Assembly (NCBI GenBank): GCA_041658765.1
Contig: JBAZZO010000006.1
Span: 37,947-101,946 of the forward strand
DNA from: Coriobacteriia bacterium
Lineage (GTDB): Bacteria > Actinomycetota > Coriobacteriia > Anaerosomatales > JBAZZO01
DNA length: 64,000 bases
Reading direction: 5' to 3'
Part shown: positions 31,369 to 54,319 of the stretch, in pieces
Layout of the letters: each line of letters starts with the position of its first letter
How positions within the stretch are numbered: the stretch's first letter is position 1
Notes under the pieces: generated by a model
What the model was told of the DNA's origin: nothing
Seen by the model: the letters and a program-made list of their open reading frames with translations, nothing else
Database searches by the model: none
Position numbers and translations under genes: made by a program

Positions 31369-31632
31369 ATGCCGACAGGGACTTCCAGGTGTCCTGGGAA
31401 CGACGGCAGGTCTCTGACCGCCGGTATCTACAAGTGCCCACGGTGCGGCGGAGAGGTCGAGTTGTTCTCCGACGAAGGGCGCCGACGTTGTCCCTCGTGC
31501 GGCGCGACGGTGGTCAAGGAGCAAGCACCTAGCTGCATAGTGTGGTGTCAGCACGCCAGAGAGTGCCTGGGCGAGGAGCGCTTCGAGGCGCTCACGTCAC
31601 GATCGGACGATCCCGCAGGACCCGAAGAGTAG
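31369..31632 (+). CDS. small Cys-rich zinc-ribbon protein
   Basis: ATG follows GAGGAG. 87 aa with CPRCGG...CPSCG (a 4-Cys ribbon) plus CIVWCQHARECLG. Confidence 0.55.
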   Translation: MPTGTSRCPGNDGRSLTAGIYKCPRCGGEVELFSDEGRRRCPSCGATVVKEQAPSCIVWCQHARECLGEERFEALTSRSDDPAGPEE

Positions 31633-31756
31633 CATCCCCATCCCCGCGACCCCTGCTCGGGCATCCCGCGTAGGGTATGTGTGACTCCGATGGACGAAGA
31701 TCCGCGCACCGGCCGGATCGGCCAGCAGGGCGAGGGAACACGAGGAGCGTGAGTAG

Positions 31757-33451
31757 ATGAAGTCGGATCTGGAGATCGCCCAGGAAGCGACCTTGCGGCC
31801 CATCACCGAAGTCGCTGCCGAGATCGGCATCTCGGAGGACCATCTCGAGATGTACGGCAAGTTCAAGGCGAAGATAGCGCTCGACGTCCTCGGCTCGTTG
31901 GCCGACCGTCCCCAGGGCCGCTACATCGATGTGACCGCGATCAACCCTACGCCGCTGGGCGAGGGCAAGACGGTCACCACGGTCGGCCTCGGTCAGGCGC
32001 TGAAGCATATCGGCAAGAACGTCATCACCTGCATCCGGCAGCCGTCGCTGGGTCCGGTCTTCGGCATCAAAGGCGGTGCGGCCGGTGGCGGCTACTCGCA
32101 GGTCATCCCGATGGAGGACTTCAACCTCCACCTGACCGGCGACGTCCACGCCGTCACGATGGCCAACAACCTGCTCGCCGCCTACATCGACAACCACCTC
32201 CACCACGGCAACGTCCTCGACATCGATCCCTACTCGATCACATGGCGGCGGGTGGTGGACCTCAACGATCGCGCGCTCCGCAACGTGGTCGTCGGCCTCG
32301 GCGGGAAGCTGGACGGTCCGCCTCGCGAGACCGGCTGGGACATCTCGGTCGCGAGCGAGGTCATGGCGATCCTGGCGATGGCGACCGACCTCGGGGACCT
32401 TCGCGCGCGCCTGGGCCGCATCGTCATCGGCACCGACCGCTCGGGCCAGCCCGTCACCGCCGAGGACCTGAAATGCGCGGGAGCGATGGCGGTGTTGATG
32501 CGGGACGCCGTCAAGCCGAACCTGATGCAGAACCTGGAGGGCGGCGCGGTACTCGTGCACGCCGGCCCCTTCGCCAACATCGCGCAGGGCAACAACTCCA
32601 TCATCGCCGACAAGATCGCACTCAGGATCGCGGACTATGTGGTGACGGAGTCCGGTTTCGGCGCCGACATGGGCGCCGAGAAGTTCATGAACATCAAGTG
32701 CCGCGCTTCGGGGCTCGTTCCCGACTGCGTGGTCATCGTCGCGACCGTGCGCGCTCTCAAGGCCGCATCGGGCAAGTTCCAGGTCATCCCCGGCAAGCCG
32801 TTGGACGCCCGGCTGTTGACCGAGGACCTCGACTCGATCGCCGAAGGCATCGTCAACCTCGAGGTCCACGTCGAGAACATGAAGAAGTTCGGCGTACCGG
32901 TGGTGGTCGCGGTCAACCACTTCCCCACCGACACGGAGGCCGAGCACGCCTTCATCAAGGAGCGCGCGCTCTGTGCGGGCGCCGATTCCGCCGTCACGCA
33001 CAAGGTCCACGCGGGCGGTGGGGCGGGAGGCGAGGAACTCGCGACGGCCGTCGTCGCTGCATGCGAGATGCCCAAGGAGTTCAAGTTGCTCTACCCGGAC
33101 GACGCCTCGATCAAGGAGAAGATCGAGACCATCGCCCGCGAGATCTATCGCGCGGACGGTGTGGATTACCTGCCCGCCGCCGAGGCCAAGATCAGGCTCT
33201 ACACCGATCTCGGCTACGGCAGCCTGCCGATCTGCATGGCGAAGACCCACCTGTCGCTGTCGCACGATCCGACGCTCAAGGGCCGGCCCACCGGCTGGCG
33301 CCTGCCGATCCGCGACATCCGAGCCAGCGTCGGCGCCGGGTTCCTCTACCCGCTGTGTGGCGACATGCGTACCATGCCGGGACTCCCGAAGACCCCCGCA
33401 GGCGACAACATCGACCTCGACGCCGACGGCAACGTCGTCGGGCTGTTCTAG
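31757..33451 (+). CDS. fhs: formate--tetrahydrofolate ligase
   Basis: 564 aa. Shows SDLEIAQEA..., TAINPTPLGEGKTT and other FTHFS hallmarks throughout. Confidence 0.95.
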   Translation: MKSDLEIAQEATLRPITEVAAEIGISEDHLEMYGKFKAKIALDVLGSLADRPQGRYIDVTAINPTPLGEGKTVTTVGLGQALKHIGKNVITCIRQPSLGPVFGIKGGAAGGGYSQVIPMEDFNLHLTGDVHAVTMANNLLAAYIDNHLHHGNVLDIDPYSITWRRVVDLNDRALRNVVVGLGGKLDGPPRETGWDISVASEVMAILAMATDLGDLRARLGRIVIGTDRSGQPVTAEDLKCAGAMAVLMRDAVKPNLMQNLEGGAVLVHAGPFANIAQGNNSIIADKIALRIADYVVTESGFGADMGAEKFMNIKCRASGLVPDCVVIVATVRALKAASGKFQVIPGKPLDARLLTEDLDSIAEGIVNLEVHVENMKKFGVPVVVAVNHFPTDTEAEHAFIKERALCAGADSAVTHKVHAGGGAGGEELATAVVAACEMPKEFKLLYPDDASIKEKIETIAREIYRADGVDYLPAAEAKIRLYTDLGYGSLPICMAKTHLSLSHDPTLKGRPTGWRLPIRDIRASVGAGFLYPLCGDMRTMPGLPKTPAGDNIDLDADGNVVGLF

Positions 33452-33473
33452 CACGGGCGGAGGCAGACCGGCG

Positions 33474-35417
33474 ATGCCGCGAGTGACGTTCATGCCCGAT
33501 GGAGTGACCCTCACCGTCTCGTCAGGTGAGAGTCTCCTTCGCGCCGCCATGATGGCGGACGTGGGTGTGAGCGCTTCGTGCGGTGGCGACGGCACGTGCG
33601 GCAAGTGCCGGATGGTCGTCGAGCACGGCAAGGTCGACGGGTCGTCGTCGACGAAGCTGACCACCGAGCAGGTCGAGAAGGGCTACGTGCTCGCCTGTCT
33701 CTCGTCGGTGACGGAAGACGTCGCGGTGCGCATCCCCATCGAGTCGTTGCCGGGGGCCGCACCCGTTCATGGCGCCGGGCGGCGGCTCGTCAACACCGTG
33801 CTGTCGGCGGAGGACCATGCGGTCCGGCTTCCGCCGATCAAGCTGCACGCGCCCATCTTCAAGGCCGCGCTCGATCTGCAGGAACCCGATCTGACCGACA
33901 ACGCCGCCGATGCCACCCGCGTGCGCCAGGCGTTGCGCCGGGGCTACGGCGTGCGCGGCGCGACGATCTCGCTCGACGCCCTGCGGCGCCTGCCCTCGCT
34001 CGCCCGCGAGGGCGGCTGGACGGTCACGGCGTTCGTCGCCGAGCCGTGCGAGGCGGGACCGTGCATCTCCGGGTTCCACGCGGGAGATACGAGCGCGCGG
34101 CAGTTCTCGGCGGCGGTGGACATCGGCACGACGACCGTGGAGGTAGCGCTGATCGACGTCGTGACCGGCCATGTGGTGGCCAGACACGCAGCATACAACG
34201 CGCAGGTCTCGCGAGGCGAAGATGTCATCACCCGGGTCATCGCCGCCGACAGCGAGGAGGGTCTGGAGGAGCTGCACGGTCTCGCCATCAAGAGCGTGTC
34301 GGATCTCATCGCGCTGTGCTTCGAGGAGGCCGGGGCCGACCCGGAAGACCTCGTGTCGTACGTCACCGCCGGCAACACCGTCATGACGCACCTGCTGCTC
34401 GGCATCTCGCCCGCGAGCATCCGCACATCGCCCTACGTCCCTCCCGCGTCGTCCTTCCCGTGGGTGCGGGCGCGCTCCCTCGGGCTCCCGGGTTCGGCCG
34501 CTACCCGCGTCGTGCCGCTGCCGTGCCCGGCGAGTTGGCTCGGCGGCGACGTCGTGGCCGGCGTCGTCGCGGCGGGTATCCCTTGGCGCGACAAGCTGAC
34601 GCTCTTCATCGACGTGGGGACGAACGGCGAGATCGTGCTCGGCAACAGCGAATGGCTGGTGTCGTGTTCGTGCTCGGCAGGTCCCGCGTTCGAGGGCGGA
34701 GGCATCCGACACGGGATGCGCGCCGCGGAAGGGGCCATCGAGCAGGTACGCATCGACCCGGCGACGCTCGAGCCCTCGATCATGACGATCGGCTCGGCCA
34801 GCCCTATCGGCATCTGCGGCAGCGGGCTCATCGACACGGTGTGCGACCTCTTCCTATGCGGTGCGATCGACCGTACGGGCAAGTTCGCCGTGGAGCCCGA
34901 CGGCGGCCGCATCCGCGACGGGGAACACGGGCGCGAGTACGTGCTCGTCCACGCCGGCGACTCGGGGACCGGCCACGCCATCACCCTGGGTGAGGTCGAC
35001 ATCGACAACCTCATGCGCGCGAAGGCCGCCATCTACGCGGGCATCTGCGTTCTGATCGAGAGCCTTGACGTGACCATCGGCGACATCAGCGAGGTCGTGG
35101 TCGCGGGAGGCTTCGGCCACTACCTGGACCTGGAGCGCGTCACCGCCTTGGGCATGGTGCCCGAGATGGACCCGGGCGACTTCGTGTTCCTCGGCAACGG
35201 TTCTCTGCTCGGCGCCACGCTGTGCGTCCGTTCGCGGGAGATGCTCGAGCAGGCGCGCTCGGTCGCCGAGATGATGACCTACCTCGAGCTCTCGGTGAAC
35301 GCCGGCTTCATGGACCACTACGTCTCGGCTCTCTTCCTGCCGCACACGGACCTGTCGGCGTTCCCGCGCACGGAGGCGCTCCGAGCGCAGCGTTCCGGTG
35401 TTCGGGGGGTGAGCTAG
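33474..35417 (+). CDS. acsV: corrinoid activation/regeneration protein (RACo/AcsV): 2Fe-2S ferredoxin + ASKHA ATPase
   Basis: ATG at 33474. The N-terminal plant-type ferredoxin motif is SASCGGDGTCGKC, followed by a large ASKHA-like domain (DIGTTTV, DVGTNGEI). It sits in the CODH/ACS operon. Confidence 0.85.
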   Translation: MPRVTFMPDGVTLTVSSGESLLRAAMMADVGVSASCGGDGTCGKCRMVVEHGKVDGSSSTKLTTEQVEKGYVLACLSSVTEDVAVRIPIESLPGAAPVHGAGRRLVNTVLSAEDHAVRLPPIKLHAPIFKAALDLQEPDLTDNAADATRVRQALRRGYGVRGATISLDALRRLPSLAREGGWTVTAFVAEPCEAGPCISGFHAGDTSARQFSAAVDIGTTTVEVALIDVVTGHVVARHAAYNAQVSRGEDVITRVIAADSEEGLEELHGLAIKSVSDLIALCFEEAGADPEDLVSYVTAGNTVMTHLLLGISPASIRTSPYVPPASSFPWVRARSLGLPGSAATRVVPLPCPASWLGGDVVAGVVAAGIPWRDKLTLFIDVGTNGEIVLGNSEWLVSCSCSAGPAFEGGGIRHGMRAAEGAIEQVRIDPATLEPSIMTIGSASPIGICGSGLIDTVCDLFLCGAIDRTGKFAVEPDGGRIRDGEHGREYVLVHAGDSGTGHAITLGEVDIDNLMRAKAAIYAGICVLIESLDVTIGDISEVVVAGGFGHYLDLERVTALGMVPEMDPGDFVFLGNGSLLGATLCVRSREMLEQARSVAEMMTYLELSVNAGFMDHYVSALFLPHTDLSAFPRTEALRAQRSGVRGVS

Positions 35418-36197
35418 ATGGCCTTCACCATCGCGCTTGCCGGCAAGGGCGGGACCGGCAAGACGACCATGGCGGCGCTGCTCGTGCGCGCCCTGCGCGA
35501 GCTGGGCGCGCGTTCCGTACTCGCGGTGGACGCCGACCCCAATGCGTGTCTTCACGAGGCGCTCGGGCTGGAGGTGGAGCGGTCCGTGGGCGACATAACC
35601 GAGGAGATGCTCCGGCTCGCCGACGACAACCGTCCGGGAGGCATGGACAAGGAGACGTGGCTCGAGCTCAACGTGAACCGCTACGTGGTCGAGTCGACCG
35701 AGTGCGACCTGCTCTCGATGGGCCGTCCCGAAGGCTCGGGATGCTACTGCTACGCGAACAATCTCGTGCGAGCATGCATGGACGACCTGTCGCGCAGTTA
35801 TGAGTACGTGATCATGGACAACGAAGCCGGTCTCGAGCACCTCTCGCGGCGGACCACGCGCAACGTCGACCTGCTGCTCCTCATCGCCGACCCGAGCGTG
35901 CGCGGCATCCGCACCGCCCGTACGCTCGACGAGCTCGCCGGCGAGCTCGGGATAGCCGTTGGCGCGCGCTACCTCGTCGTCGATCGCGCCCAAGAGCCGC
36001 TCGACCCCGTGCTCCTGGAGGCCGTCGCGGCCACTGGCATCCCTCTGCTCGGCACCGTCCCCAGCGATGACGGCGTGACCCGCTGTGATCTGCTCGGCAC
36101 GGGCCTGTTCGACCTGCCCGACGACTCTCCGTCGCTCGCCGCCGTCAAGGAGATGGTCACCCGTGCGGTGCCCGTCCTCTCCGGCGCGAGCGTCTGA
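35418..36197 (+). CDS. cooC: CODH/ACS nickel-insertion accessory ATPase (CooC/AcsF family), copy 1
   Basis: 259 aa. It has the deviant Walker [10 protein letters not shown] and the CxC metal motif GSGCYC. Confidence 0.85.
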
Positions 36198-36235
36198 CCC
36201 CGCGAGTGCCGGTACCGATCAGGGAGGGAACGGAC

Positions 36236-37093
36236 GTGACTGCAACGATCATCGACGGGAAGGCTATCGCGGCGAAGCGGCGCGCAGCCGTAGCGGAGCA
36301 CGTGCGCGAGCTCGTCGCGCGCGGCGTGACGCCGGGTCTGGCGGTCGTCATCGTCGGCGAGGACCCCGCTTCGCAGATCTACGTCCGCAACAAGCACAAG
36401 GCTTGCGACGAAGTGGGCATCCGCTCGTTCCAGTACGAGCTTCCACAGACCACCACGCAAGAGGAACTGCTCGCGCTCGTGCGCGAGCTGAACGGCCGTG
36501 GCGACGTCCACGGCATCCTCGTGCAGTTCCCGCTCCCCGCCCATCTCGACGAGGACGTGGTGATCGAGGCGATCGGTCTGGACAAGGACGTCGACGGCTT
36601 CCACCCCGAGAGCATCGGCCGGCTCGTGGTCGGCAAGGACACGTTCGTGTCGTGCACGCCGGCAGGCGTGATGGTCCTGCTCGAAGAGTCCGGGGTGGAC
36701 CTCACCGGCAAGGACGTGGTGGTCGTCGGGCGCAGCAACAACGTCGGCAAGCCCGCCGCGCTGCTCGCGCTCGCGCGCAACGCCACCGTCACGACGTGCC
36801 ACTCGCGAACACGCGACCTGGCGGGCCATGTGCGCTCGGCCGACGTCGTCATCGTCGCCATCGGCCGAGCGGAGATGATCAAGGGCGATTGGATCCGCGA
36901 GGGCGCCGTGGTCATCGACATCGGGATGAACCGCACCGAGGACGGCCGTCTCGTGGGAGACGTCGAGTTCGAGACCGCCAAGGAACGGGCCTCCGCGATC
37001 ACCCCGGTCCCCGGGGGCGTGGGTCCGATGACGATAGCCATGCTGCTCGAGAACACCGTCAAGTCCGCCGCCAGAGTCGCGGACTCGGAGTAG
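36236..37093 (+). CDS. folD: bifunctional methylene-THF dehydrogenase / methenyl-THF cyclohydrolase
   Basis: IIDGKAIA..., [12 protein letters not shown] and PGGVGPMT motifs are present. GTG at 36236 follows GGGAGGGA. The track start at 36206 is an alternative. Confidence 0.9.
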
Positions 37094-37103: not shown

Positions 37104-38051
37104 GTGACGTACCAGGATCCGGTCGAGAGGCCGACCGGCAGCATCCGTGAGGTGACGCTCGGCGCAGGTGCCGGAGCCGTGACCGTGGGCGGAGAGTCCG
37201 CGCTGCCGTTCTACCTGTTCGACGGCGCGATGCCGAACCGGCCGCGCATCGCGATGGAGGTCTTCGACCTCGTCCCCGACGGCTGGTCGGCGACGCTGAC
37301 CGACGCGCTCGGCGCCGTGATCTCGGACCCGGTCGCGTGGGCCCGCGCCTGCGTCGACGACTGGGGCGCCGACATGGTGTGCGTCCAACTCGCCGGTACC
37401 GACCCCAACGGAGCGGATCGTTCTCCCGACGAGGCCGCCGAGACCGTCAAGGCCGTCGTGGCTGCGGTCGGTGTCCCCGTCGTGGTGTACGGCTCGGGCA
37501 ACTCGGAGAAGGACGGCGAGGTCCTCAAGAAGGTGGCCGAAGCGGTCACCGGGACCGTCATCGCCATCGGTCCGGCCACCGAGGACAACTACAAGCCCAT
37601 CACGGCAGCGGCCATGGGCTACGGCCACGCGGTCATCGCTTCGACGCCCATCGACGTCAACATGGCGAAGCAGCTGAACATCCTCATGACCCAGATGGGC
37701 CTGCCCGCCGAGCGCATACTCGTCGACCCGTCGGTCGGCGCGGTCGGTTACGGGGTCGAGTATGCGTACACGGTCATGGAGCGGTTGCGTCTGGCCGCCC
37801 TGAGCCAGAACGACGACATGACGCAGATGCCGATGATCTGCAACCTGGGCAAGGAGGCGTGGCGCTCGAAAGAGGCTCGCGCCACCGAGGAGGACGAACC
37901 GGCCTGGGGCGACGCCTCCAAGCGCGGAGTCCTATGGGAGACGACGACCGCCGTCACGCTGGCTCTCGCCGGTGCCGACGTACTCGTGATGCGCCACCCC
38001 GAAGCGGTGGCGACCGTCCGCACGGCGATGGACACGCTGCTAGACCAGTAG
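37104..38051 (+). CDS. acsD: corrinoid iron-sulfur protein small subunit (CODH/ACS delta)
   Basis: 315 aa with a TIM-barrel delta-subunit pattern. GTG follows AGGAGG. Operon context supports the call. Confidence 0.85.
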   Translation: MTYQDPVERPTGSIREVTLGAGAGAVTVGGESALPFYLFDGAMPNRPRIAMEVFDLVPDGWSATLTDALGAVISDPVAWARACVDDWGADMVCVQLAGTDPNGADRSPDEAAETVKAVVAAVGVPVVVYGSGNSEKDGEVLKKVAEAVTGTVIAIGPATEDNYKPITAAAMGYGHAVIASTPIDVNMAKQLNILMTQMGLPAERILVDPSVGAVGYGVEYAYTVMERLRLAALSQNDDMTQMPMICNLGKEAWRSKEARATEEDEPAWGDASKRGVLWETTTAVTLALAGADVLVMRHPEAVATVRTAMDTLLDQ

Positions 38052-38069: not shown

Positions 38070-40025
38070 GTGAGCCCGATGTCCGACGAATCCACCGCCA
38101 CCGAGTCCGACGAATACAGCATCGATCCGACAACGGCCCAGATGCTCAAGATCGCCGACGACCTCGGGATAGAGACGGCGTTCTCGCGGTCGCGCTCCAT
38201 CAAGCCGTGCTCGACCGGTGCGACCGGGGGATGCTGCAAGCTGTGCGCGATGGGACCGTGTCGCCTCATCGGCAAGCACGAACGCGGCGTCTGCGGCGCC
38301 GATCGCGAGACGATCGCCGCGCGCAACTTCGTGCGGCAGGTCGCAGCAGGGGCCTCCGCGCACTCGGATCACGGTCGCGAAGTCGCTCTGGCACTGCGCG
38401 GGATCGCCACCGGAGAGATCGAGGGCGGCTCCATCGCCGACACCATCAAGCTGGCCAAGGTCGCCGGGTACATGGGTATCGACATCGCCGGCAAGGACGT
38501 GAGCCAGCTCGCGCTCGAAGTGGCCGACTGCGCCCTAGCGCAGTTCGGCCAGCAGACCGGCGAGCTGGTCTACATCGGTCGCGCACCGAAGAAGCGCCAG
38601 GACCTGTGGCGCAAGTACGGCGTGGTGCCGCGCGGCGTCGACCGCGAGGTGGTCGAGGCGATGCACCGCACGGCGGCCGGTACCGACCAGAACCACCTGA
38701 CCCTGCTCGACGGAGCCGTGAAGTGCGCGCTCGCGAGCGGCTGGGGCGGTTCGATGCTCGCCACCGACCTGCAGGACATCCTCTATGGGACCCCGCAGGC
38801 GTTGCGCTCCTCCGCCAACCTCGGCGTTCTCTCCGAGGAGAAGGTGAACATCCTCATCCACGGTCACGAGCCGCTGCTCGCCTCGATGATCATCGACGTC
38901 GCGCACGAAGCGGAGATGATCGCGCTGGCCGAGTCGGTGGGCGCCAAGGGCATCAACATCGCCGGCATCTGCTGCACCGCCAACGAGTCGCTCATGCGCA
39001 AGGGCGTCCCGCCCGCGGGCAACATGCTCCAGCAGGAGCTCGCAGTCCTGACGGGCGCCGTCGAAGCGATGGTCGTCGACGTGCAGTGCATCTTCCAGGG
39101 CCTGAACGAGGTCGCCTCGCACTTCCACACCAAGCTCATCTCCTCGAGTCCGAAGGCGCGCGTCGGCGACTCCGAGCACATCGTCGTCGACGAGCACAAG
39201 CCCATGGAGGCCGCGCGAGCCATCGTCCGCGCCGCGATCGAGAACTTCCCGAACCGCAAGGACACGCACATCCCTCACGTGTCCGAGCCGATAGTCGCCG
39301 GCTTCAGCCACGAGTACATCCGCTACATGCTCGGCGGCAAGATGCGCGCTTCGCTCACGCCGCTGAACGAGAACATCGTCAACGGCAGGATCCGCGGCGT
39401 GGCGGCGGTCGTGGGCTGCTCGAACCCGCGTGCCGTCCAGGACTACGCGGTCGTCAACGTGGTGCGCGAGCTCATCGCCAACAACGTGCTCGTCGTGGTG
39501 ACCGGCTGCGCCGCGATCACGAGCGGCAAGCATGGCCTGCTCACCCCCGAGACGATGGAGTTCGCGGGCGAGACGCTGCGGGAGGTCTGCGAGACCGTGG
39601 GCATCCCGCCGGTCCTGCACATGGGCTCGTGCGTCGACAACTCGCGCATCCTCACAGTCCTCGCCGACGTCGCGGCGACCGGGGGACTCGGCGACGACAT
39701 CGCGGGTCTGCCCGCGGTGGGGCTCTCGCCCGAATGGTTCTCGGAGAAGGCGCTCGAGATCGCCACATATGCCGTGGCCTCTGGGGTCCACGTCATCTTC
39801 GGCGGCGTGGGCTCTCCGGTCGCGAACAGTCCGATCGTCACCGAGTACATGATCTCGGGCTGGACCGAGCGCTACGGGGGCAGCCTTCGCTTCATCACCG
39901 AACCGCAGGACATGGTCGTCGCCACACTCGACCTCATCGACGCCGCGCGCAAAGCGCTCAAGATCGATGTGGCCGCCGAACGCGTCCTGTTCGACATGGA
40001 CATGAGGAGGGAACTCAGTGTCTAA
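38070..40025 (+). CDS. acsA: anaerobic carbon-monoxide dehydrogenase catalytic subunit
   Basis: 651 aa. The N-terminal Cys cluster is CSTGATGGCCKLCAMGPCR...GVCGA, and the CooS pattern continues throughout. ATG at 38079 is an alternative start. Confidence 0.95.
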   Translation: MSPMSDESTATESDEYSIDPTTAQMLKIADDLGIETAFSRSRSIKPCSTGATGGCCKLCAMGPCRLIGKHERGVCGADRETIAARNFVRQVAAGASAHSDHGREVALALRGIATGEIEGGSIADTIKLAKVAGYMGIDIAGKDVSQLALEVADCALAQFGQQTGELVYIGRAPKKRQDLWRKYGVVPRGVDREVVEAMHRTAAGTDQNHLTLLDGAVKCALASGWGGSMLATDLQDILYGTPQALRSSANLGVLSEEKVNILIHGHEPLLASMIIDVAHEAEMIALAESVGAKGINIAGICCTANESLMRKGVPPAGNMLQQELAVLTGAVEAMVVDVQCIFQGLNEVASHFHTKLISSSPKARVGDSEHIVVDEHKPMEAARAIVRAAIENFPNRKDTHIPHVSEPIVAGFSHEYIRYMLGGKMRASLTPLNENIVNGRIRGVAAVVGCSNPRAVQDYAVVNVVRELIANNVLVVVTGCAAITSGKHGLLTPETMEFAGETLREVCETVGIPPVLHMGSCVDNSRILTVLADVAATGGLGDDIAGLPAVGLSPEWFSEKALEIATYAVASGVHVIFGGVGSPVANSPIVTEYMISGWTERYGGSLRFITEPQDMVVATLDLIDAARKALKIDVAAERVLFDMDMRRELSV

Positions 40026-42201: not shown

Positions 42202-42229
42202 GGCGCGAGCAGCAAAAGGAGTGAGCCGG

Positions 42230-45601: not shown

Positions 45602-46257
45602 TCGTGGTGCGCGCGAAACCTCTCGAGGAGGTCTTCGACATGGTCGTCGCTCACGAGCGAGTCCTTCTCGTGGGCTGCAACACGTGCGCCGCCGTCTCCT
45701 TGGCCGGCGGGGAGATGGAGGTCGCCACGCTCGTCGAGGCGCTCCGCTTGATGGCCGCGCGCCGCGGCCGCGCGATCGAGTTCACCGGCTCGGTCCTGCA
45801 GCGCCAGTGCGAGCCCGAGTTCCTCGAGGAGCTCGGGGACGAGGGGTACGACGCCGTGCTCTCGCTGGGGTGCGGCGCGGGCGTGGCCCTGCTCTCCGAC
45901 ACCACGAAGGTTCCGGTGTATCCGGCGCTCGACACCATGTTCATCGGCGCGGCCAAGGGATTCGCCTCGTGGCAGGCCGAGTGTTCGGCATGCGGCCAGT
46001 GCGTGCTCGGCCGCACCGCCGGCATCTGCCCGATCACGCGTTGCGCGAAGGGCATCATGAACGGCCCGTGCGGCGGCGTGAAGGACGGCCGCTGCGAGCT
46101 TGGCGACCGCGACTGCGCCTGGGTGCTCATCTACGAGCGTCTCGAGGCCCAAGGCCGCCTCGGCGAGTTCGGGCGGTTCGGCGAGGCGAAGGACCACTCC
46201 GTCCGCTCGAAGTGCGACGTGTGGGACATGAGCGACAAGGGGGGTGAGCCGAAGTGA
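45598..46257 (+). CDS. metV: methylene-THF reductase small subunit MetV (Cys-rich C-terminal-domain protein)
   Basis: 219 aa. CNTCAA...CSACGQCVLGRTAGICPITRCAKGIMNGPCGG is present. ATGA overlap upstream and GTGA overlap downstream. Confidence 0.85.
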   Translation: MIVVRAKPLEEVFDMVVAHERVLLVGCNTCAAVSLAGGEMEVATLVEALRLMAARRGRAIEFTGSVLQRQCEPEFLEELGDEGYDAVLSLGCGAGVALLSDTTKVPVYPALDTMFIGAAKGFASWQAECSACGQCVLGRTAGICPITRCAKGIMNGPCGGVKDGRCELGDRDCAWVLIYERLEAQGRLGEFGRFGEAKDHSVRSKCDVWDMSDKGGEPK

Positions 46258-47135
46258 CGTTGCGGGAAGCGCTGGAGTCCGGCGAGTTCGTCGTGACCTC
46301 CGAGGTCGGCCCGCCCAAGGGGACCGACATCTCGGAGATGCTCTCCGCCGCCGAGATGTTGCGCGGCCGCGTGCACGCGCTCAACGTCACCGACAACCAG
46401 GCGGCTGTCATGCGCCTGTGCACCTTGGCGGCCTGCGTCCATCTCAAGGAGCGCGGCTTCGATCCGGTGCTGCAGGTGACCTGTCGAGACCGCAACCGGC
46501 TAGCGATGCAGTCGGACCTTCTCGGCGCAGCCTCCTTCGGCATCACGAACGTGCTCGCGCTGACCGGCGATCACGTTGCTGTCGGGGATCATCCGCAGGC
46601 CAAGCCGGTCTTCGATCTCGAGTCCGTGCAGCTCCTGGAGGCGATCAGGGCGCTGCGGTCCGGTCACGACCTGGCCGGCAACGAGCTGCACGGCACGCCG
46701 GAGTTCTTCGCCGGCGCCGTCGTCACCCCTGACGCTCACCCGCTCGCGCCGCAGCTCGCCAAGTTCGAGAAGAAGGTGGCCGCCGGCGCGCGCTACTTCC
46801 AGACCCAGGCGGTCTACGACCCGGCGACGTTCCGCGGGTTCATGGAGTATGCGCACGGACTCGGCGCGAAGGTGCTCGCCGGCCTCGTCATCCTGCGCTC
46901 GGCGCGGATGGCACGCTTCATGACCAAGAACATCCCCGGCATCTCGGTGCCCCAGCCGCTCATCGACGAGCTCGATCGCGCGGAGGACCCCGTCGCCGTC
47001 GGCGTCGAGATAGCGGCCCGCTTCATCACTCAGACGCGCGATGTGTGCGACGGTGTCCACATGATGGCCGTGGGAGCCGAGCACCTCGTCCCCAGGGTGC
47101 TCGACGCGGCCGGGCTCGAAGGGGTGAGCACGTGA
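46254..47135 (+). CDS. metF: 5,10-methylenetetrahydrofolate reductase
   Basis: 293 aa. VTSEVGPPKG, ALNVTDNQ and the TIM-barrel MTHFR pattern are seen. Confidence 0.9.
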   Translation: MTLREALESGEFVVTSEVGPPKGTDISEMLSAAEMLRGRVHALNVTDNQAAVMRLCTLAACVHLKERGFDPVLQVTCRDRNRLAMQSDLLGAASFGITNVLALTGDHVAVGDHPQAKPVFDLESVQLLEAIRALRSGHDLAGNELHGTPEFFAGAVVTPDAHPLAPQLAKFEKKVAAGARYFQTQAVYDPATFRGFMEYAHGLGAKVLAGLVILRSARMARFMTKNIPGISVPQPLIDELDRAEDPVAVGVEIAARFITQTRDVCDGVHMMAVGAEHLVPRVLDAAGLEGVST

Positions 47136-47908
47136 AAGTAGCGGTCTCGGGCAAGGGCGGCGTCGGCAAGACCACACTCGCGGCGGGCCTCGCGCTGCTC
47201 TTCGCGGAGGCGGGCAGGCGGGTCATCGCCATCGATGCGGACCCCGACGCCAACCTCGCCATGGCCCTCGGCGCCACGCCCGAGGCCGCCGCGGCGTGCG
47301 TGCCGCTCGTCGAGGAGGACGAGCTCATCGAGGAGCGCACCGGCGCGGCCCCCGGCAGGGGCGGCATGTTCATCCTCGATCCCGACGTCTCCGACGTCGT
47401 CGAGCGCTGCGGCGTCACCTTCAACGGCGTGACCATGCTCAAGATGGGGACGGTGGAGCGCGGCGGTTCGGGATGCATGTGCTCGGAAGGCACCTTCCTC
47501 AAGGCGTTCATGCGCGATCTGCTCGTCGATCGTGACGATGTGGCCATCCTCGACATGGAGGCCGGCATCGAGCACCTCGGTCGCGGCACCGCCGAGGCGG
47601 TCGACGTGCTCATCGTGGTGATCGAGCCCGGCGGACGCTCGGTCCAGACGGCGCGCCAGGTCCGCGCGCTCGCGGCCGACATCGGCATCCGCGACGTCGT
47701 GGCGGTCGCGAACAAGGTCCGCGACGCCGACGATGCCGTGTTCGTGCGCGACGCGCTCGGCGACATCCCCCTGCTCGGCACGATGCCGCTGTGTGAGGGC
47801 GTCAGAGTCGCCGATCGCGAGGGGCGTCCTTCGTATCACGCCGACCCGGCCCTCGACGAAGCGCTGAGCGACATCGCGGGCGCGCTCGCGGCGCGGGTCG
47901 ACTGGTAG
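47132..47908 (+). CDS. cooC: CODH/ACS nickel-insertion accessory ATPase (CooC/AcsF family), copy 2
   Basis: GTG at 47132 overlaps the metF stop. SGKGGVGKTT and GSGCMC motifs are present. Confidence 0.85.
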   Translation: MKVAVSGKGGVGKTTLAAGLALLFAEAGRRVIAIDADPDANLAMALGATPEAAAACVPLVEEDELIEERTGAAPGRGGMFILDPDVSDVVERCGVTFNGVTMLKMGTVERGGSGCMCSEGTFLKAFMRDLLVDRDDVAILDMEAGIEHLGRGTAEAVDVLIVVIEPGGRSVQTARQVRALAADIGIRDVVAVANKVRDADDAVFVRDALGDIPLLGTMPLCEGVRVADREGRPSYHADPALDEALSDIAGALAARVDW

Positions 47909-47942: not shown

Positions 47943-48767
47943 ATGCTCGTCATCGGTGAGAAGGTCAACATCATGAGCAAGACCATCGGCCCTGCGATGC
48001 GTGAGCGCGACGAAGGGCCCGTGCGTGCCATGGCGCTCACCCAGGTGGAGGGCGGCGCCGACGTGCTCGACATCAACCTCGGCCCCGCCACCAGGGGCGG
48101 CCCCGAGATGATGGAGTGGGTCGTGAAGGTGGTGCAGGAAACGGTCCCCGAAACCCGTCTGTGTCTCGACACGATGAACCCCCAGGCGATGGAGGCGGGC
48201 CTGAGGGTCTGCAAGCTCCAGCCGATCATCAATTCGACGTCGGCCGAGCGTGCCCGTCTCGAGACGTACTTGCCGATGGCGAAGACCTACGAGGCCGAGA
48301 TCATCGGTCTGGCGATGACGGAGCACGGCGTCTCCCGCGACGCCAACGAGCGCATCGAGGCGGCCATGACGATCCTTGCCGCGATGATCGAGTTCGGCGT
48401 GCCGGCGGACCGCCTCTACCTCGACCCGCTCCTGCTCCCCGTGAGCGTGGCCCAGCAGCAGGCGCCCGAGGCGGCCGAGGCGATCGCCATGTTCGGTCAA
48501 CTCGACGAGCCGCCGCTGAAAACGACGGTCGGCCTCTCGAACATCTACAATGGCTGTCCGGAGCACGTGAAGTCGCCGCTGGCCGCGGCCCTGCTCGCGA
48601 TCATGATCCCCGCGGGCCTGACCTCGGCGATCATGGACCCCAACGACGAGCTCCAGATGATGGTCGCCCGCGCCGATCCGGCCGAACTCGAGCTGACCGA
48701 GTCGCTCGAGAAGTCGATGTCGGTGCTGCGGAACGAGACACTGTACTGCGACTCGTACCTGGACTAG
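47943..48767 (+). CDS. acsE: methyl-THF:corrinoid/iron-sulfur protein methyltransferase
   Basis: 274 aa with a pterin-binding barrel (IGEKVN..., DVLDINLGPA). Operon context supports the call. Confidence 0.9.
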   Translation: MLVIGEKVNIMSKTIGPAMRERDEGPVRAMALTQVEGGADVLDINLGPATRGGPEMMEWVVKVVQETVPETRLCLDTMNPQAMEAGLRVCKLQPIINSTSAERARLETYLPMAKTYEAEIIGLAMTEHGVSRDANERIEAAMTILAAMIEFGVPADRLYLDPLLLPVSVAQQQAPEAAEAIAMFGQLDEPPLKTTVGLSNIYNGCPEHVKSPLAAALLAIMIPAGLTSAIMDPNDELQMMVARADPAELELTESLEKSMSVLRNETLYCDSYLD

Positions 48768-48788: not shown

Positions 48789-49292
48789 ATGGGTGAGTGC
48801 ACCTGCGCGACGGGGCGCGACGAGGGTTTCGACCCCGCGCTGCTCGATGCTGTGCTGGCGGAGCACGCCTCGACGGCCGACGCTCTCATCCCCCTGCTGC
48901 AGGCGACCCAGCGTGCGTACGGCTACCTGCCCGAGGACGCCATGCGGCGCATCGCCGTCGCGCTCGGCCGGCCGCTGTCGGCCGTCCTCGGAGTCGCGAC
49001 GTTCTACGCGCAGTTCCACCTCACGCCGCGCGGCCGGCGGATCGTGCGGGTGTGCCACGGCACCGCGTGTCACGTGAAGGGCGCGCTCGAGGTCACCGAG
49101 GCGCTCGTCGACGAGCTAGGTGTCGCCGTCGGCCGGACCGCCGACGACAGGAGCGTGACGCTCGAGTCCGTGGCGTGCGTGGGTTGCTGCGGCCTCGGCC
49201 CGATCGTCCTCGTCGACGACGAGCCGCACGGCGGTCTCGACGCCAAGAGCACGCGCAAGCTCGCCAAGAGCATCAAGCGGGGGAGGGACTGA
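48789..49292 (+). CDS. NuoE/HydC/FdsG-like [2Fe-2S] subunit
   Basis: 167 aa. The thioredoxin-like 2Fe-2S motif is VCHGTACHVKG...CVGCCGLGP. Confidence 0.85.
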   Translation: MGECTCATGRDEGFDPALLDAVLAEHASTADALIPLLQATQRAYGYLPEDAMRRIAVALGRPLSAVLGVATFYAQFHLTPRGRRIVRVCHGTACHVKGALEVTEALVDELGVAVGRTADDRSVTLESVACVGCCGLGPIVLVDDEPHGGLDAKSTRKLAKSIKRGRD

Positions 49293-51100
49293 TGTCGCCG
49301 ACCTCGAGCCGCGACCCCAGCGCCGTCATCCGCGTCTGCACGGGCTCCGGCTGCGTCATGAACGGCTCGTTGCGCTCGGCCGAGCGTCTCGAGGCCGCCA
49401 TCGCCGAGGCGGGCGCGAGCGAGAAGGTCCGCGTCGTGCGCACGGGCTGCCATGGCCTGTGCGAACTCGGCCCGATCACGGTGATCGATCCCGACCGCAT
49501 CTTCTATCCGAAGGTGACGGAGTCGAAGGCGGCCGCCATCGTCGACGCCCTGCTCGGCGGGGGCTCGCCGGTGACCGACTATCTCTACCGCGACACGGCG
49601 GACTCCGAGCCCGTGGAGCGCTACGAGGACATCCCGTTCAACCGGATCCAGCAGCGCATCGTGCTGAGGAACTGCGGCCTCGTCGACCCCGAGTCGATCG
49701 ACGACGCCGTCGGGCGCGGAGTCTACGAGGGCCTGCGGAAGGCACTGGCCGAGCTCTCGCCCGACGAGGTCATCGAGATCGTCCAGGGATCGGGTCTGCG
49801 CGGGCGCGGCGGCGCCGGCTTCTCCACTGGGATGAAGTGGCGTTTCACCCGCGACGCGGCCGGCGACCTCAAGTACGTGATCTGCAACGCGGACGAGGGC
49901 GACCCCGGCGCCTTCATGGACCGCTCCATCGCCGAAGGCGATCCGCATTCGGTCCTCGAGGGGCTCTCGATCGCGGCCTACGCCGTGGGCGCGAGCACCG
50001 GCTTCGTCTACGTGCGCGCCGAGTACCCGCTCGCGGTGAAGCGCATACGGAAGGCGATCGCCGACGCGCAGGAACGCGGACTCCTGGGGCAGAACGTGCT
50101 CGGCTCCGGCTTCTCCTTCCACCTGGAGGTGCGCGAGGGCGCCGGCGCGTTCGTGTGCGGCGAAGAGACGGCGCTCATGGCGTCGATCGAGGGCGGTCGC
50201 GGCATGCCGCGCTTCCGCCCGCCGTTCCCGGCGCAGTCCGGGCTGTGGGCGAAGCCCACGTGCATCAACAACGTGGAGACGCTCGCCAACGTGGGGTGGA
50301 TCGTCACCAACGGCGCCGACGCGTATTCGTCGATAGGCACCGGCACGAGCCACGGCACGAAGGTCTTCGCGCTCACCGGCCGGGTCCGGCGCACGGGTCT
50401 CGTCGAGGTGCCGATGGGCCGCACCGTCTCCGACCTCGTCTTCGAGGTGGGCGGCGGCTCCTCGTCGGCGAAGCCGATCAAGGCGGTCCAGATCGGAGGG
50501 CCTTCCGGCGGCTGCCTGCCGCTCGAGCTCTTCGACACCCCCATCGAGTACGATGCGCTCGCTGCCGCGGGCGCCGTGGTCGGGTCCGGCGGGATCGTGG
50601 TGGTCGACGACGGCACCTGCATGGTCGACCTCGCGCGCTACTTCCTCTCCTTCACCCAGGACGAGAGCTGCGGCAAGTGCGTCCCGTGCCGCATCGGCAC
50701 GAAGCGCATGCTCGAGCTCGTCACGCGCATCTGCGCGGGCGAGGGCGAGGAGGGCGACATCGAGAAGCTGGAGCGCCTCGCGAACGACGTGAAGGCGTCT
50801 TCCCTGTGCGGGCTGGGGCAGACCGCGCCCAACCCCGTGCTCACCACGCTGCGCTACTTCCGCCACGAGTTCGAGGAGCACATCCGCGAACACCGCTGTC
50901 GCGCCGGCGCGTGCAAGGTGCTCTCGACATTCGTCGTCGTCGCCGAAGCCTGCAGGGGGTGCGGCGTGTGCAAGAAGAACTGCCCGGTGTCGGCGATCTC
51001 CGGCCGGCTCAGGGAGGTCCACGAGATAGACTACGCGTTGTGCGTGAAGTGCGGGCAGTGCGAAGTCCACTGTCCGTTCGAGGCGATAGCACGCAGGTAG
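49292..51100 (+). CDS. NuoF/HydB/FdsB-like NAD(P)H-binding flavoprotein with extra N-terminal 2Fe-2S and C-terminal 2x[4Fe-4S] domains
   Basis: ATG at 49292 overlaps the upstream TGA. GLRGRGGAGFSTGMKW (FMN site), ESCGKCVPCRIG and C-terminal CRGCGVCKKNCP...CVKCGQCEVHCP are seen. Confidence 0.9.
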   Translation: MSPTSSRDPSAVIRVCTGSGCVMNGSLRSAERLEAAIAEAGASEKVRVVRTGCHGLCELGPITVIDPDRIFYPKVTESKAAAIVDALLGGGSPVTDYLYRDTADSEPVERYEDIPFNRIQQRIVLRNCGLVDPESIDDAVGRGVYEGLRKALAELSPDEVIEIVQGSGLRGRGGAGFSTGMKWRFTRDAAGDLKYVICNADEGDPGAFMDRSIAEGDPHSVLEGLSIAAYAVGASTGFVYVRAEYPLAVKRIRKAIADAQERGLLGQNVLGSGFSFHLEVREGAGAFVCGEETALMASIEGGRGMPRFRPPFPAQSGLWAKPTCINNVETLANVGWIVTNGADAYSSIGTGTSHGTKVFALTGRVRRTGLVEVPMGRTVSDLVFEVGGGSSSAKPIKAVQIGGPSGGCLPLELFDTPIEYDALAAAGAVVGSGGIVVVDDGTCMVDLARYFLSFTQDESCGKCVPCRIGTKRMLELVTRICAGEGEEGDIEKLERLANDVKASSLCGLGQTAPNPVLTTLRYFRHEFEEHIREHRCRAGACKVLSTFVVVAEACRGCGVCKKNCPVSAISGRLREVHEIDYALCVKCGQCEVHCPFEAIARR

Positions 51101-51583: not shown

Positions 51584-51601
51584 GGTCCGAGAGGGAGCAT
51601 C

Positions 51602-54319
51602 GTGAGCAAGCGGGTCGAGGAGAGGACGCTCGCGTTGACCGTCGACGGTCGCGCCGTCGGAGCGCGAGAAGGTTCGACGGTGCTCGAGGCGTGCTGCGAG
51701 GCGGGCGTCCACATCCCCACGCTCTGTCACGACCCGCGTCTCGCGCCCTTCGGCGCCTGCCGCCTGTGCGTGGTCGAGATCGAGGGCATGCGCGGCTACC
51801 CGACCTCGTGCACCACGATGGCCGCCGACGGCATGGTCGTCGCCACCGACACCGAGCGGTTGCGCCAGATGCGCACGACCATCATCGAGCTGCTCCTCTC
51901 CGACCACGACGTGGACTGTCTCACCTGCGAATCCAACGCCGCCTGCGGCTTGCAGGACCTCGCCTACGAGCTCGGTATCGAACACGAGCGCTACGGCGGC
52001 GACAGGCACGGCCCGCCCGCGCTCGGCGACGACCCGCTGATCGCCCGCGACTACTCCAAGTGCATCAGCTGCGGACGCTGCGTGCGCATCTGCGCCGAGG
52101 TGCAGGGATGCAGCGTCTACGGCTGGCAGGGTCGCGGTTTCGACTCGCTTCCCATGACGCCGTACGAGCTGCCGTTGGGCGAGTCGGGCTGCGAGTACTG
52201 CGGCCAGTGCGTCTCCACCTGCCCGGTGGGCGCGCTCACCGACCGCATCTCGCGCTTCGCCGGCCGCCCGTGGGAGACCGGGAAGGTGCGCACGATCTGC
52301 GGCTACTGCGGCGTGGGCTGCACCGTCGAGTACCGCGTGCGCGAAGGCCGCATCGTGGGTGCGAGCGCTCCGGTCGGCGTGGGCGTCAACGGCGGGAACC
52401 TCTGCGCGAAGGGGCGTTACGGTTGGAGCTTCGTCCACCACCCCGACCGCCTCACCGTGCCGCTCGTGCGCAAGGGCGGCGAGCTGGTCTCCTCGACGTG
52501 GGAGGAGGCCATCGGGCTCGTCGCGGCCGGTCTCGCCAAGGCGCGCGACGCCCACGGCCCGGACGCGGTAGGCGGCCTCGCGAGCGCCAAGTGCTCCAAC
52601 GAGGAGAACTACCTCTTCCAGAAGCTGCTGCGCGCGGGTATCGGCACGCATAACGTCGACCACTGCGCCCGCCTTTGACACAGCTCCACGGTGGCCGGTC
52701 TGGCCGCCACCTTCGGGAGCGGGGCGATGACGAACTCGATCGGCGATCTCGGCGAGGCCGACGTCATGCTCGTCGTCGGCTCCAACACCACCGAGGCGCA
52801 CCCGATCATCGGTATCGAGCTCAAGCGCGCCGCCGCGCGCGGGACGCGCATCGTCGTGATCGACCCGCGGCGCATCGCGCTCGTCGATCACGCCCGGAGT
52901 TGGCTGCGAATCCGCCCGGGCACGAACGTCGCGCTCTTCAACGCGATGGCGAAGGTCATCGTCGAAGAGGGTCTCGCCGACTCCGTCTTCATCGAGGCGC
53001 GCACCGAGGGTTTCGACGAGTTCGCGGCGCATGTCGCCTCCGTCGACCTCGACGAGGCGGCCGCGCTCACGAGCATCGGCGCAGACGCCATCCGCGAGGT
53101 CTCCCGCGCCTACGCGAACGCCGAGCGCAGCTCGATCGTCTACTGCATGGGCGTCACACAGCACACGTCGGGCACCGCGCAGGTGCGCGCTCTCGCCAAC
53201 CTCGCGCTGCTCTGTGGCCACATCGGCAAGCCCGGCACCGGCGTGAACCCGTTGCGCGGCCAGAGCAACGTGCAGGGCGCGTGCGACCTCGCGTGCCTGC
53301 CGAACTGCCTGCCGGGCTACCAGCCGCTCACCGATAAGAACGCGCTCGACCGCGTCTGCGACCTCTGGGAGAGCGAGCGCGAGCTGTCGACCGAGGCGGG
53401 ACTCACCGTGGTCGAGATGATCGACGCCGCCGCGCGCGGCGAGCTCAAGGCGCTCTACGTCATGGGAGAGAACCCGGTGCTCTCCGACCCCGACCAGGCG
53501 CACGTGGTCGAGGCGCTGGAGAACCTCGACTTCCTCGTGGTGCAGGACATCTTCCTCACGGAGACCGGCAGGCTCGCCGACGTCGTGCTCCCCGCCGCTA
53601 CGTTCCTCGAGAAGGACGGCACCTACACCAACACCGAGCGCCGCGTCCAGCTGGGACGGAAGGTCGTCGATCCGCCGGGCGAGGCGAAGACCGACTTCGA
53701 GATCGTCACGCTCGTCGCGAACGCGATGGGACTCGCGTGGGGCGAGGAGAGCCCCGAGGACGTGATGACCGAGATGGCCGCCGTCACCCCGCAGTACGGC
53801 GGCATCACCCATCGCCGCCTCGAGGAGGATGGCGGCCTGCAGTGGCCGTGCCCCGACGTCTCGCACCCCGGCACCCCGGTGCTCTACGCCGACGGCTTCC
53901 CGCGCGGCCGCGCCGCATTCGCCGTCGTCGACGACGAGCCGCCCGCCGAGCTGCCCGACGCACAGTTCCCGCTGGTGCTCTCGACGGGACGCCACCTGTG
54001 GAACTTCCACACCAACACGATGACGGGCCGCAGCGCCGGGCTCGCCGATCTCAACGCCGGGGGCTACGTGGAGATATCGCCCGAGGACGCCGAGTCGTTG
54101 TGCCTGTGCGAAGGGGACCGGGCCGAGGTGACGAGCAGGCGCGGCGCGTGCGTAGCGAGCGTGCGGATCGCTGTCGGGCTCGAGCCCGGCGTGGTGTTCA
54201 TGCCGTTCCATTTCGCCGACGCGCCGGCCAACCGCCTCACCAGCGGGGCCGTTCTCGACCCGATCTCGAAGATGCCCGGTCTCAAGACCACGCCGGTGCG
54301 GGTCTCGCGCGTCGAGTGA
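51602..54319 (+). CDS. fdhA: formate dehydrogenase alpha subunit, selenocysteine-containing (TGA 52676-52678 read as Sec), with NuoG-like N-terminal Fe-S domains
   Basis: Track ORFs 51602-52678 and 52691-54319 are in the same frame. The junction reads [30 protein letters not shown], the Sec/Cys-His active-site motif of Mo/W formate dehydrogenases. The N-terminus has 2Fe-2S plus 4Fe-4S motifs. Confidence 0.85.
52690..52711 (+). promoter_or_regulatory. SECIS-like hairpin downstream of the UGA
   Basis: GGUGGC-CGGUCUGGCC-GCCACC has a 6-bp outer stem starting 11 nt after the UGA. The inner part contains GGUC, as in bacterial SECIS apical regions. Folded by eye only. Confidence 0.55.

Follow-up and report, generated by a model that had tools for sequence, protein, structure and literature searches.

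The clostridial acetogens C. ljungdahlii, C. autoethanogenum and C. aceticum encode both branches of the Wood-Ljungdahl pathway (WLP) co-directionally in one cluster, which carries lpdA and gcvH and has a Rex operator upstream, with the formate dehydrogenase (FDH) encoded elsewhere (PMC4600107, PMC5651825). Among the Actinomycetota, WLP genes were reported in 2018 from Coriobacteriaceae/OPB41 metagenome-assembled genomes (MAGs; PMC6146748) and in 2020 from other deep clades (PMC7325909), and the actinobacterial pathway was reviewed by Jiao et al. in 2021 (ISME J), as that review is cited in PMC9686372. Here, we describe a WLP locus within a 64,000-nt stretch of contig JBAZZO010000006.1 from a Coriobacteriia bacterium (assembly GCA_041658765.1), the whole of which we call the window. 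At window positions 31369-54319 lie 18 co-directional, non-nested + strand open reading frames (ORFs), which in all probability constitute a lineage-typical, largely translationally coupled cluster that unites the whole bacterial WLP with maturation and redox-coupling proteins and would operate in the reductive direction.

Gene content and organisation of the cluster

The block was delineated from the ORF list together with third-position guanine plus cytosine (GC) content, the latter used for frame choice because high GC content yields many spurious ORFs (a 30 kb region holds 120 ORFs of at least 80 residues, many of them spurious), and ORFs were assigned to families with Pfam and NCBIfam (Table 1). 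The genes are arranged in the order Zn-ribbon gene, fhs, acsV, cooC, folD, acsD, acsA, acsB, acsC, a GltD/NfnB-like-ferredoxin-MvhD fusion gene, metV, metF, a second cooC, acsE, nuoE-like, nuoF-like, a CBS-pair gene and fdhA. By sequence comparison every enzyme of the complete bacterial WLP is identified, and the cluster motifs of the predicted AcsA, AcsB and CooC proteins are intact.

Carbon monoxide dehydrogenase (CODH) and acetyl-CoA synthase (ACS) were compared with solved structures. AcsA aligns to solved Ni-CODHs with 547 bits, the HGH, CC, QC, GC, GC and GSC positions being conserved relative to 6t7j_B; which of these residues ligates which cluster we take to follow the known CODH structures. 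AcsB aligns over its full length to the solved ACS 7zkj_B (706 bits), with SCSLCQSFAPNHLC..LGLCGA and TSCGCF identical, so that both the [4Fe-4S] Cys motif and the Cys-Gly-Cys Ni site of the A-cluster are conserved. AcsA is the single Prismane-family match over the cut-off in the genome, i.e. its sole CODH, and no second CODH or second ACS was found elsewhere in the genome. The Pfam matches of Fhs, FolD, MetF and MetV are full length and above gathering scores. AcsV matches NF040756 over its full length with 616.7 bits, under the 800-bit exception cut-off of that model, and AcsE reaches 238.8 bits against NF005719, slightly under the cut-off of 259, and 208 bits against NF040758. The two CooC proteins are 36% identical to each other; the CxC site is present in CooC1 as GSGCYC, and in the alignment of CooC2 residues 1-223 with 3kje GSGCMC stands opposite GSQCYC. 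Two cooC copies would be expected if, as we assume from Moorella, one serves CODH and the other ACS (CooC/AcsF).

Neighbouring genes are tightly packed, the starts of acsV (33474), cooC2 (47132) and nuoF-like (49292) having been set by ribosome-binding site (RBS) context and domain boundaries. In the 5' half the gaps are 22 nt (fhs to acsV), 0 nt (acsV to cooC), 8 nt (cooC to folD), 10 nt (folD to acsD) and 18 nt (acsD to acsA); acsA and acsB overlap by 8 nt (40018/40025), and gaps of 19 and 21 nt separate acsB from acsC and acsC from the fusion gene. There follow three 4-nt overlaps, fusion/metV (45598/45601), metV/metF (46254/46257) and metF/cooC (47132/47135), gaps of 34 nt (cooC to acsE) and 21 nt (acsE to nuoE), a TGATG overlap of nuoE and nuoF at 49292, and gaps of 42 nt (nuoF to CBS) and 18 nt (CBS to fdhA). 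The acsV stop directly abuts the cooC1 start, which suggests translational coupling, and a Shine-Dalgarno (SD)-like motif precedes nearly every gene of the block. The first in-frame start of folD (36206) has no clear SD motif, and the true folD start may differ; at the cooC1 start (35418) there is a G-run in place of the motif.

A preliminary description of this DNA, made from the letters and ORF translations, had proposed 17 genes on one strand encoding a complete WLP and FDH, with interleaved methyl and carbonyl branches and gaps of at most 42 nt between fhs and fdhA. Homology searches place the ORFs in the expected families, the gene order is indeed interleaved, the largest gap measured is 42 nt, and every start/stop overlap it listed proved exact in position once the starts were fixed. 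The one-strand block likewise stands, but its gene count rises to 18 with the Zn-ribbon ORF; the genes that had been named are correct, the list having left out the fusion, nuoE-like, nuoF-like and CBS genes.

The only spacer longer than 42 nt inside the block separates the Zn-ribbon ORF from fhs. When this spacer is compared with its counterparts in two relatives (G117 and G015), the three share a CCTGCTCGGGCA..CCCG block and match almost throughout the final ~30 nt, where a GAGGAG RBS lies.

Table 1 Features of the WLP block and its leader in window coordinates
Feature	Position	Strand	Evidence or remarks
Non-coding gap, 246 nt	31123..31368	+	Largest 5'-side intergenic region; follows cyanophycin-synthase-N-like ORF
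Small Cys-rich Zn-ribbon protein, 87 aa	31369..31632	+	Weak Zn_ribbon Pfam matches
Spacer/leader before fhs, 124 nt	31633..31756	+	Partly conserved with G117 and G015
fhs, formate-tetrahydrofolate ligase	31757..33451	+	PF01268, 863.5 bits, full length
acsV/RACo, reductive activator of corrinoid Fe-S protein	33474..35417	+	Fer2 + RACo_linker + Raco_middle + RACo_C_ter
cooC/acsF-type Ni-insertion ATPase, copy 1	35418..36197	+	CbiA/MinD-type P-loop
folD, bifunctional methylene-tetrahydrofolate (THF) dehydrogenase/cyclohydrolase	36206..37093	+	PF02882 + PF00763, full length
acsD, corrinoid Fe-S protein small subunit	37104..38051	+	PF03599; NF003376 436.8 bits (cut-off 280)
acsA, Ni-CODH catalytic subunit	38070..40025	+	TIGR01702 558 bits (cut-off 478)
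acsB, acetyl-CoA synthase	40018..42201	+	CODH_A_N + CdhC + ACS_CODH_B_C
acsC, corrinoid Fe-S protein large subunit	42221..43579	+	PF04060 FeS + PF03599 CdhD, full length
Fusion of GltD/NfnB-like NAD(P)H:FAD module, 2x[4Fe-4S] ferredoxin and MvhD, 666 aa	43601..45601	+	Fer4_20 + Pyr_redox_2 + Fer4 + FlpD
metV, methylene-THF reductase small subunit	45598..46257	+	PF12225, methylene-THF reductase (MTHFR) C-terminal
metF, methylene-THF reductase	46254..47135	+	PF02219, full length
cooC/acsF-type Ni-insertion ATPase, copy 2	47132..47908	+	CooC structure 3kje, 173 bits, E 7e-50
acsE, methyl-THF:corrinoid Fe-S protein methyltransferase	47943..48767	+	PF00809 over cut-off
NuoE/HydC-like [2Fe-2S] subunit of FDH diaphorase module	48789..49292	+	PF01257, full length
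NuoF/HydB-like FMN subunit	49292..51100	+	Pfam: N-terminal Trx-like [2Fe-2S], C-terminal 2x[4Fe-4S]
CBS-pair protein, 146 aa	51143..51583	+	PF00571, two stretches
fdhA, NuoG-fused molybdo/tungstopterin FDH alpha subunit, 905 aa, selenoprotein	51602..54319	+	TIGR01591 810 bits (cut-off 666.25)
In-frame TGA read as selenocysteine, HCARL-U-HSS	52676..52678	+	Catalytic Sec/Cys-His site of FDH family
SECIS-like hairpin GGUGGCC-GGUCU-GGCCGCCACC	52690..52711	+	Starts 11 nt past UGA

Conservation of the layout and comparison with known clusters

AcsB was found in 19 genomes of a 201-genome sample of the class, all within the window's own order, and across the whole order in 38 of 146 genomes and 28 of 76 genera; the window genome is the sole representative of its family in the genome collection. 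The full order from fhs to fdhA, with both cooC genes and the fusion gene in place, recurs in eight relatives (L009, L013, G143, G117, G063, G042, G147 and G079), and two more (G057 and G157) show the same order up to their contig ends, AcsB of the order-sharing genomes being 70-86% identical to that of the window. The clusters of uncultured Coriobacteriia (Coriobacteriaceae/OPB41) thus have the same bacterial-type CODH/ACS and methyl branch in an identical fhs-...-fdhA arrangement, the fusion gene being kept at the same position across the order. They differ at the edges: here the Zn-ribbon gene lies upstream of fhs, rather than convergent after fdhA, and the CBS gene is kept. The CBS gene occurs in about half of the genomes (present in G143, G117, G063, G042, G157 and L013; absent from G083, G057, G147 and G079), and the Zn-ribbon gene is always at the cluster edge, upstream of fhs in G117 and convergent just after fdhA in G083, G143, G057 and G157.

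Homologues of the Zn-ribbon protein with 41-54% identity are also encoded beside CODH/ACS clusters of other phyla (L027, L044, L041 and L067), the gene neighbouring CODH/ACS in MAGs labelled Armatimonadota, Desulfocapsa and Victivallaceae; the 28 database homologues are all unnamed or misnamed. As judged from gene neighbourhoods, the predicted Zn-ribbon protein is a conserved companion of CODH/ACS clusters.

Variant forms of the cluster were also observed. In the close relatives L010 and L012 it stops at acsE and has no FDH module attached; the next gene is the Zn-ribbon gene, in the opposite orientation. A divergent CODH with 51-53% identity to the window AcsA takes the place of acsA before acsB in G083 (L097/L098), L014, L015, L017 and L019. 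It is preceded by NuoE-, NuoF- and Fdh/NuoG-like genes, the last with 31-35% identity to FdhA; G083 additionally has the normal nuoE-nuoF-fdhA at its 3' end. AcsB is in two to four frame-shifted pieces in G215, G216, G221, G242 and G161, reflecting either pathway decay or assembly error.

The Geothermincolia-type clusters of other Actinomycetota (L021, L023, L024, L061, L063 and L066) share the backbone fhs-acsV-cooC-folD-acsD-acsA-acsB-acsC-metV-metF-acsE, with nuoE-nuoF-fdhA after acsE in some loci, and their AcsB is 58-62% identical to that of the window. In contrast to the window block they lack the fusion gene, acsC being followed by metV, as well as the second cooC, and their FdhA has selenocysteine (Sec) in L061 and Cys in L063.

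The clostridial clusters have cooC, acsV, fhs, folD, metV, metF, acsC, acsD, acsE and acsB in common with the window block. They also carry fchA. The window block, on the other hand, has no lpdA, gcvH or Rex box, its FolD is bifunctional, its acsA is adjacent to and overlaps acsB, and it includes FDH with its diaphorase and the NfnB-like/MvhD partner of MetVF. The lineages Hakuba, UBA1414 and RBG-13-55-18 (Merino et al. 2020, PMC7325909) resemble the window genome as deep-branching anaerobic Actinomycetota that have the WLP and a MetVF with an MvhD-containing electron module. Hakuba, however, combines a hybrid archaeal/bacterial CODH/ACS (acsED-cdhABC-acsC) with hdrA-mvhD-metVF-hdrCB (PMC7325909), whereas the CODH/ACS of the window is purely bacterial, there is no hdrB or hdrC in the cluster, and the flavoprotein is GltD/NfnB-like rather than HdrA.

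A full-text literature search for the WLP acsB operon of Coriobacteriia, whose coverage did not extend to Jiao et al. 2021, found no description of this exact layout. The novelty attached to the block in the preliminary description was overstated: the layout is conserved across the order, where the WLP has been known since 2018, and a one-cluster WLP was already known in clostridial acetogens (PMC4600107, PMC5651825). Because the layout is common to relatives and the pathway already published for the lineage, the locus is a good example rather than a discovery, and any novelty sits in the MetVF partner, the bifurcating-type Sec-FDH with its CBS gene, and the Zn-ribbon companion.

Redox modules and the selenoprotein FdhA

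The NuoF-like protein gives full-length matches to 7t2r_B (791 bits), 7q4v_B (755 bits) and the electron bifurcating hydrogenase HydB (8a6t_B, 681 bits), whereas the match to the non-bifurcating FdsB 6vw7_B has 425 bits and leaves the C-terminus uncovered. On these alignments the predicted NuoE/NuoF-like pair has the architecture of a bifurcating enzyme. Compared with the Bfu-type enzymes (HydABC-type hydrogenases and NfnABC; PDB: 7t2r, 7q4v, 8a6t, 9n5u), the NuoF-like subunit matches the HydB type along its entire length, with the C-terminal 2x[4Fe-4S] domain covered as well, but the predicted module has no hydrogenase subunit. Compared with the NAD-dependent FdsGBA FDH (PDB: 6tg9, 6vw7), FdhA is nearest to the FdsA-type alpha subunits and has a NuoG-like N-terminus. 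The module departs from both in pairing an FdsA-like Sec catalytic subunit with a bifurcating-type flavoprotein, and in having the CBS-pair gene between nuoF and fdhA. The CBS-pair protein would be a variable accessory factor, possibly a nucleotide-sensing regulator.

The closest solved structures to the fusion protein are NfnA (9n5u_A, 320 bits) and the NfnB-type 5jca_L, and its gene is joined to metV by an ATGA overlap; the protein is presumed to be the electron-input partner of MetVF. It is conceivable, though we regard it as rather doubtful, that the block represents a self-contained CO2-to-acetyl-CoA module with two unstudied redox couplers and a Zn-ribbon accessory factor of CODH/ACS clusters in several phyla. 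As parts of this joint proposal, a bifurcating flavoprotein of the HydB/HydC type may drive Sec-FdhA in the first coupler, a CBS-pair sensor being optional, and the second may be a methylene-THF reductase of a new type, its MetVF fed by the NfnB-like/ferredoxin/MvhD fusion and not by HdrABC-MvhD, RnfC2 or LpdA.

Among FDH alpha structures, FdhA aligns to 9wxb_B with 743 bits and to 6tg9_A with 724 bits. Its gene appears as two ORFs in the same frame (51602-52678 and 52691-54319) because of the in-frame TGA. The same codon is TGA in L009, L022, L052 and L061 and encodes Cys in L063 and L078, and the genome has a tRNA-Sec (C3:176178-176274) with selB ~3 kb away (337.8 bits, or 378.8 with neighbouring segments; cut-off 242.25). 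The hairpin that follows the UGA is likely to be the selenocysteine insertion sequence (SECIS). Its fold does not differ significantly from shuffles in this GC-rich context (z -0.64), and because thermodynamics cannot separate the hairpin from shuffles we relied on comparative evidence: in L022 and L061 the GGTCT loop is kept and the stem varies yet remains paired. Elsewhere in the genome, a [NiFe] hydrogenase large subunit gene at C12:21645-23111 (- strand) has an in-frame TGA near its C-terminus and finds its best match in the NiFeSe hydrogenase family; its product is probably the second selenoprotein of this genome.

Transcription, direction of operation and origin

Set against the interpretation of the locus as one coupled cluster working reductively are points that weigh the other way. 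A sigma-70 promoter scan of both block halves gave 0 matches, a result that is uninformative for a 68% GC actinobacterium, and consensus scans catch actinobacterial promoters and hairpin-only terminators poorly. The conserved 124-nt spacer and the shifting position of the Zn-ribbon gene suggest that this gene may form a unit of its own. That the FDH and MTHFR modules bifurcate is a reading of domain architecture. Because every step of the WLP is reversible, the direction of the pathway cannot be told from gene content. Finally, the host order is probably OPB41/Anaerosomatales, a name taken from MAG labels and the literature.

A single transcript would fit the gene overlaps, the SD motifs and the junctions free of hairpins, features that are necessary for such a transcript and insufficient to establish it. 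No + strand terminator-like site occurs at any junction, the lone + strand match (54187) lying within fdhA and having a poor T tail, and against a background of every 60-nt window in the block, none of those at stop codons folds well enough to fall under the 20th percentile, in agreement with the preliminary statement that the block holds no terminator-like hairpin. The 246-nt gap ahead of the Zn-ribbon gene would probably hold the main promoter, with a possible second start in the spacer before fhs, and one long polycistronic mRNA would end at fdhA, where a convergent PIN/Phd pair begins. These toxin-antitoxin genes lie on the minus strand, with their end 25 nt past the fdhA stop, and a HigB/helix-turn-helix (HTH) pair follows.

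The principal alternative is that the block is divided into several transcription units with promoters of their own, for instance the Zn-ribbon gene alone, fhs-acsC, the MTHFR module, acsE and the FDH module. It would account for the conservation of the spacer before fhs and for the Zn-ribbon gene being found at the other end and on the other strand in relatives; moreover, the missing FDH module after acsE in L010 and L012 and the variable CBS gene indicate that the 3' modules are evolutionarily separable, and the carbonyl cluster of Eubacterium limosum forms two operons by differential RNA-seq (PMC5651825). Yet the start/stop overlaps and gaps of 0-42 nt leave scant space for promoters outside coding sequence, and no hairpin or terminator-like + strand site stands out at the junctions. 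We consider such a division a serious contender, albeit the less probable one.

Searches for regulatory elements covered the whole window with Rfam at gathering thresholds and the leader (31050-31800) at E<=1, and found no match, which leaves fhs without a THF or other known riboswitch ahead of it. A Rex operator, sought as TGTGAANNNNNNTTCACA with up to 3 mismatches, gave 2 matches against 5.1 expected, none of them in the leader, and was rejected. Past the block, the PIN/Phd (54345-55090) and HigB/HTH (55293-55885) genes, both on the minus strand, lie in a region (54320-56950) whose GC content is lower, at 0.65, and the ORFs at 54395-55219 (+) and 56083-56736 (-) have no Pfam match.

The genome surrounding the cluster encodes an Rnf complex (RnfD 320.5 bits; RnfC TIGR01945 511.6 bits, cut-off 245.95), PFOR (pyruvate:ferredoxin oxidoreductase)-type enzymes and at least four [NiFe] large-subunit loci. 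The hydrogenases, which lie outside the window, include a periplasmic NiFeSe-type enzyme, a group-3b-like NAD(P)-linked enzyme and a Mvh/Vhu-type enzyme beside an HdrA2/MvhD-like protein. There is also a fused ADP-forming acetate-CoA ligase (PF13549 268.9 bits; TIGR02717 533 bits, under the cut-off of 567). Neither AckA (PF00871) nor Pta (PF01515), through which acetogens turn acetyl-CoA into acetate with substrate-level phosphorylation, has a match in this genome rated 100% complete, and DsrA was not found in the genome. The predicted ADP-forming ligase could substitute for Pta and AckA. Taken together, Rnf, the [NiFe] hydrogenases, PFOR and the ligase would favour H2-driven, reductive operation. 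The [NiFe] hydrogenases would oxidise H2. The confurcating/bifurcating-type Sec-FDH would run on reduced ferredoxin and NAD(P)H, whose balance Rnf would keep, and the MetVF complex would draw its electrons through the NfnB-like/ferredoxin/MvhD fusion. Acetyl-CoA would then enter biomass through PFOR and/or yield acetate and ATP through the ADP-forming ligase, a route proposed because Pta and AckA are absent. In the same genome the group-3b-like (sulfhydrogenase-type) NAD(P)-linked [NiFe] hydrogenase is encoded directly upstream of rnfC and the remaining rnf genes (C12:43054-52078, + strand), an unusual adjacency that may represent one unit.

Operation in the oxidative direction, in which acetate (via the ADP-forming ligase), CO or formate would be oxidised and electrons passed to H2 in syntrophy or to an external acceptor, appears unlikely to us. 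It draws on the reversibility of the pathway, on the reversible ACD-type enzyme present where Pta and AckA are absent, on the bidirectional group-3 hydrogenases and Rnf, and on the discussion of (reversed) acetogenesis for another WLP MAG in the same section of the soda-lake paper as the Coriobacteriaceae/OPB41 MAGs (PMC6146748). Against it stand the periplasmic NiFeSe-type uptake hydrogenase, the availability of PFOR for assimilation, and the hydrogenotrophic, lithoautotrophic life of those members of the presumed order that are in culture (PMC9686372; PMC11708057); the failure to identify a terminal reductase, in a search confined to DsrA, is weak evidence in the same sense. For cultivated Anaerosomatales the reductive glycine pathway has been described (PMC9686372), which the patchy distribution of AcsB fits.

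As to origin, the assembly comprises 2.06 Mb in 24 contigs at ~68% GC and is rated 100% complete with 1.1% contamination. The block lies mid-contig on a 120.7-kb contig of GC 0.688, the contigs of the genome ranging over 0.674-0.703; GC is 65-73% throughout the window, with a flat profile in which the block has the composition of its flanks, and the flanks include the actinobacterial-type housekeeping genes UPF0182 and ddl. At 76-84% identity, the AcsB sequences closest to that of the window belong to MAGs that carry the labels Coriobacteriia, Coriobacteriaceae, Actinomycetes or Actinomycetota, and in the AcsB tree the window falls in a fully supported 10-member clade of Coriobacteriia-type MAGs, itself inside a loosely supported group (SH-like approximate likelihood-ratio test, SH-aLRT, 87) with Geothermincolia-type Actinomycetota. 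The actinobacterial neighbourhood noted from the letters is thus borne out, the nearest AcsB relatives, whose gene order is the same, being Coriobacteriia, Coriobacteriaceae and Actinomycetota MAGs. Two records of the Coriobacteriia AcsB clade, L009 and L014, are titled 'uncultured Eubacteriales bacterium' and share the gene order of the clade, L009 over the whole cluster and L014 from acsB only, behind the divergent acsA; these labels are probably wrong.

That the cluster is foreign, through a mis-binned contig or recent horizontal gene transfer from a non-actinobacterial acetogen, is so improbable that we reject it: the patchiness of the WLP in the order, the 'Eubacteriales' labels on two of the nearest MAGs and the two Bacillota and one Anaerolineae AcsB sequences near the window clade are outweighed by the mid-contig position, the matching GC of contig and genome, the flat profile, the flanking genes, the completeness rating, and the occurrence of the cluster in identical order in many families of the host order, with AcsB in a fully supported clade of the lineage.

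Significance

The block leaves current understanding of the WLP unchanged. It provides a clean and complete reference copy of the actinobacterial WLP cluster, situated mid-contig in a genome whose completeness is rated 100%, and is a compact source from which two candidate bifurcating modules could be expressed. Across the whole order of these subsurface Coriobacteriia, the pathway is accompanied by FDH and by a partner dedicated to MetVF. Since the pathway is patchy, occurring in about a quarter of the sampled genomes of the order, and the cultivated members use the reductive glycine route, the block would be a useful marker by which autotrophic lineages with the WLP can be told from lineages that lack it in metagenomes of the subsurface, soda lakes and mud volcanoes.

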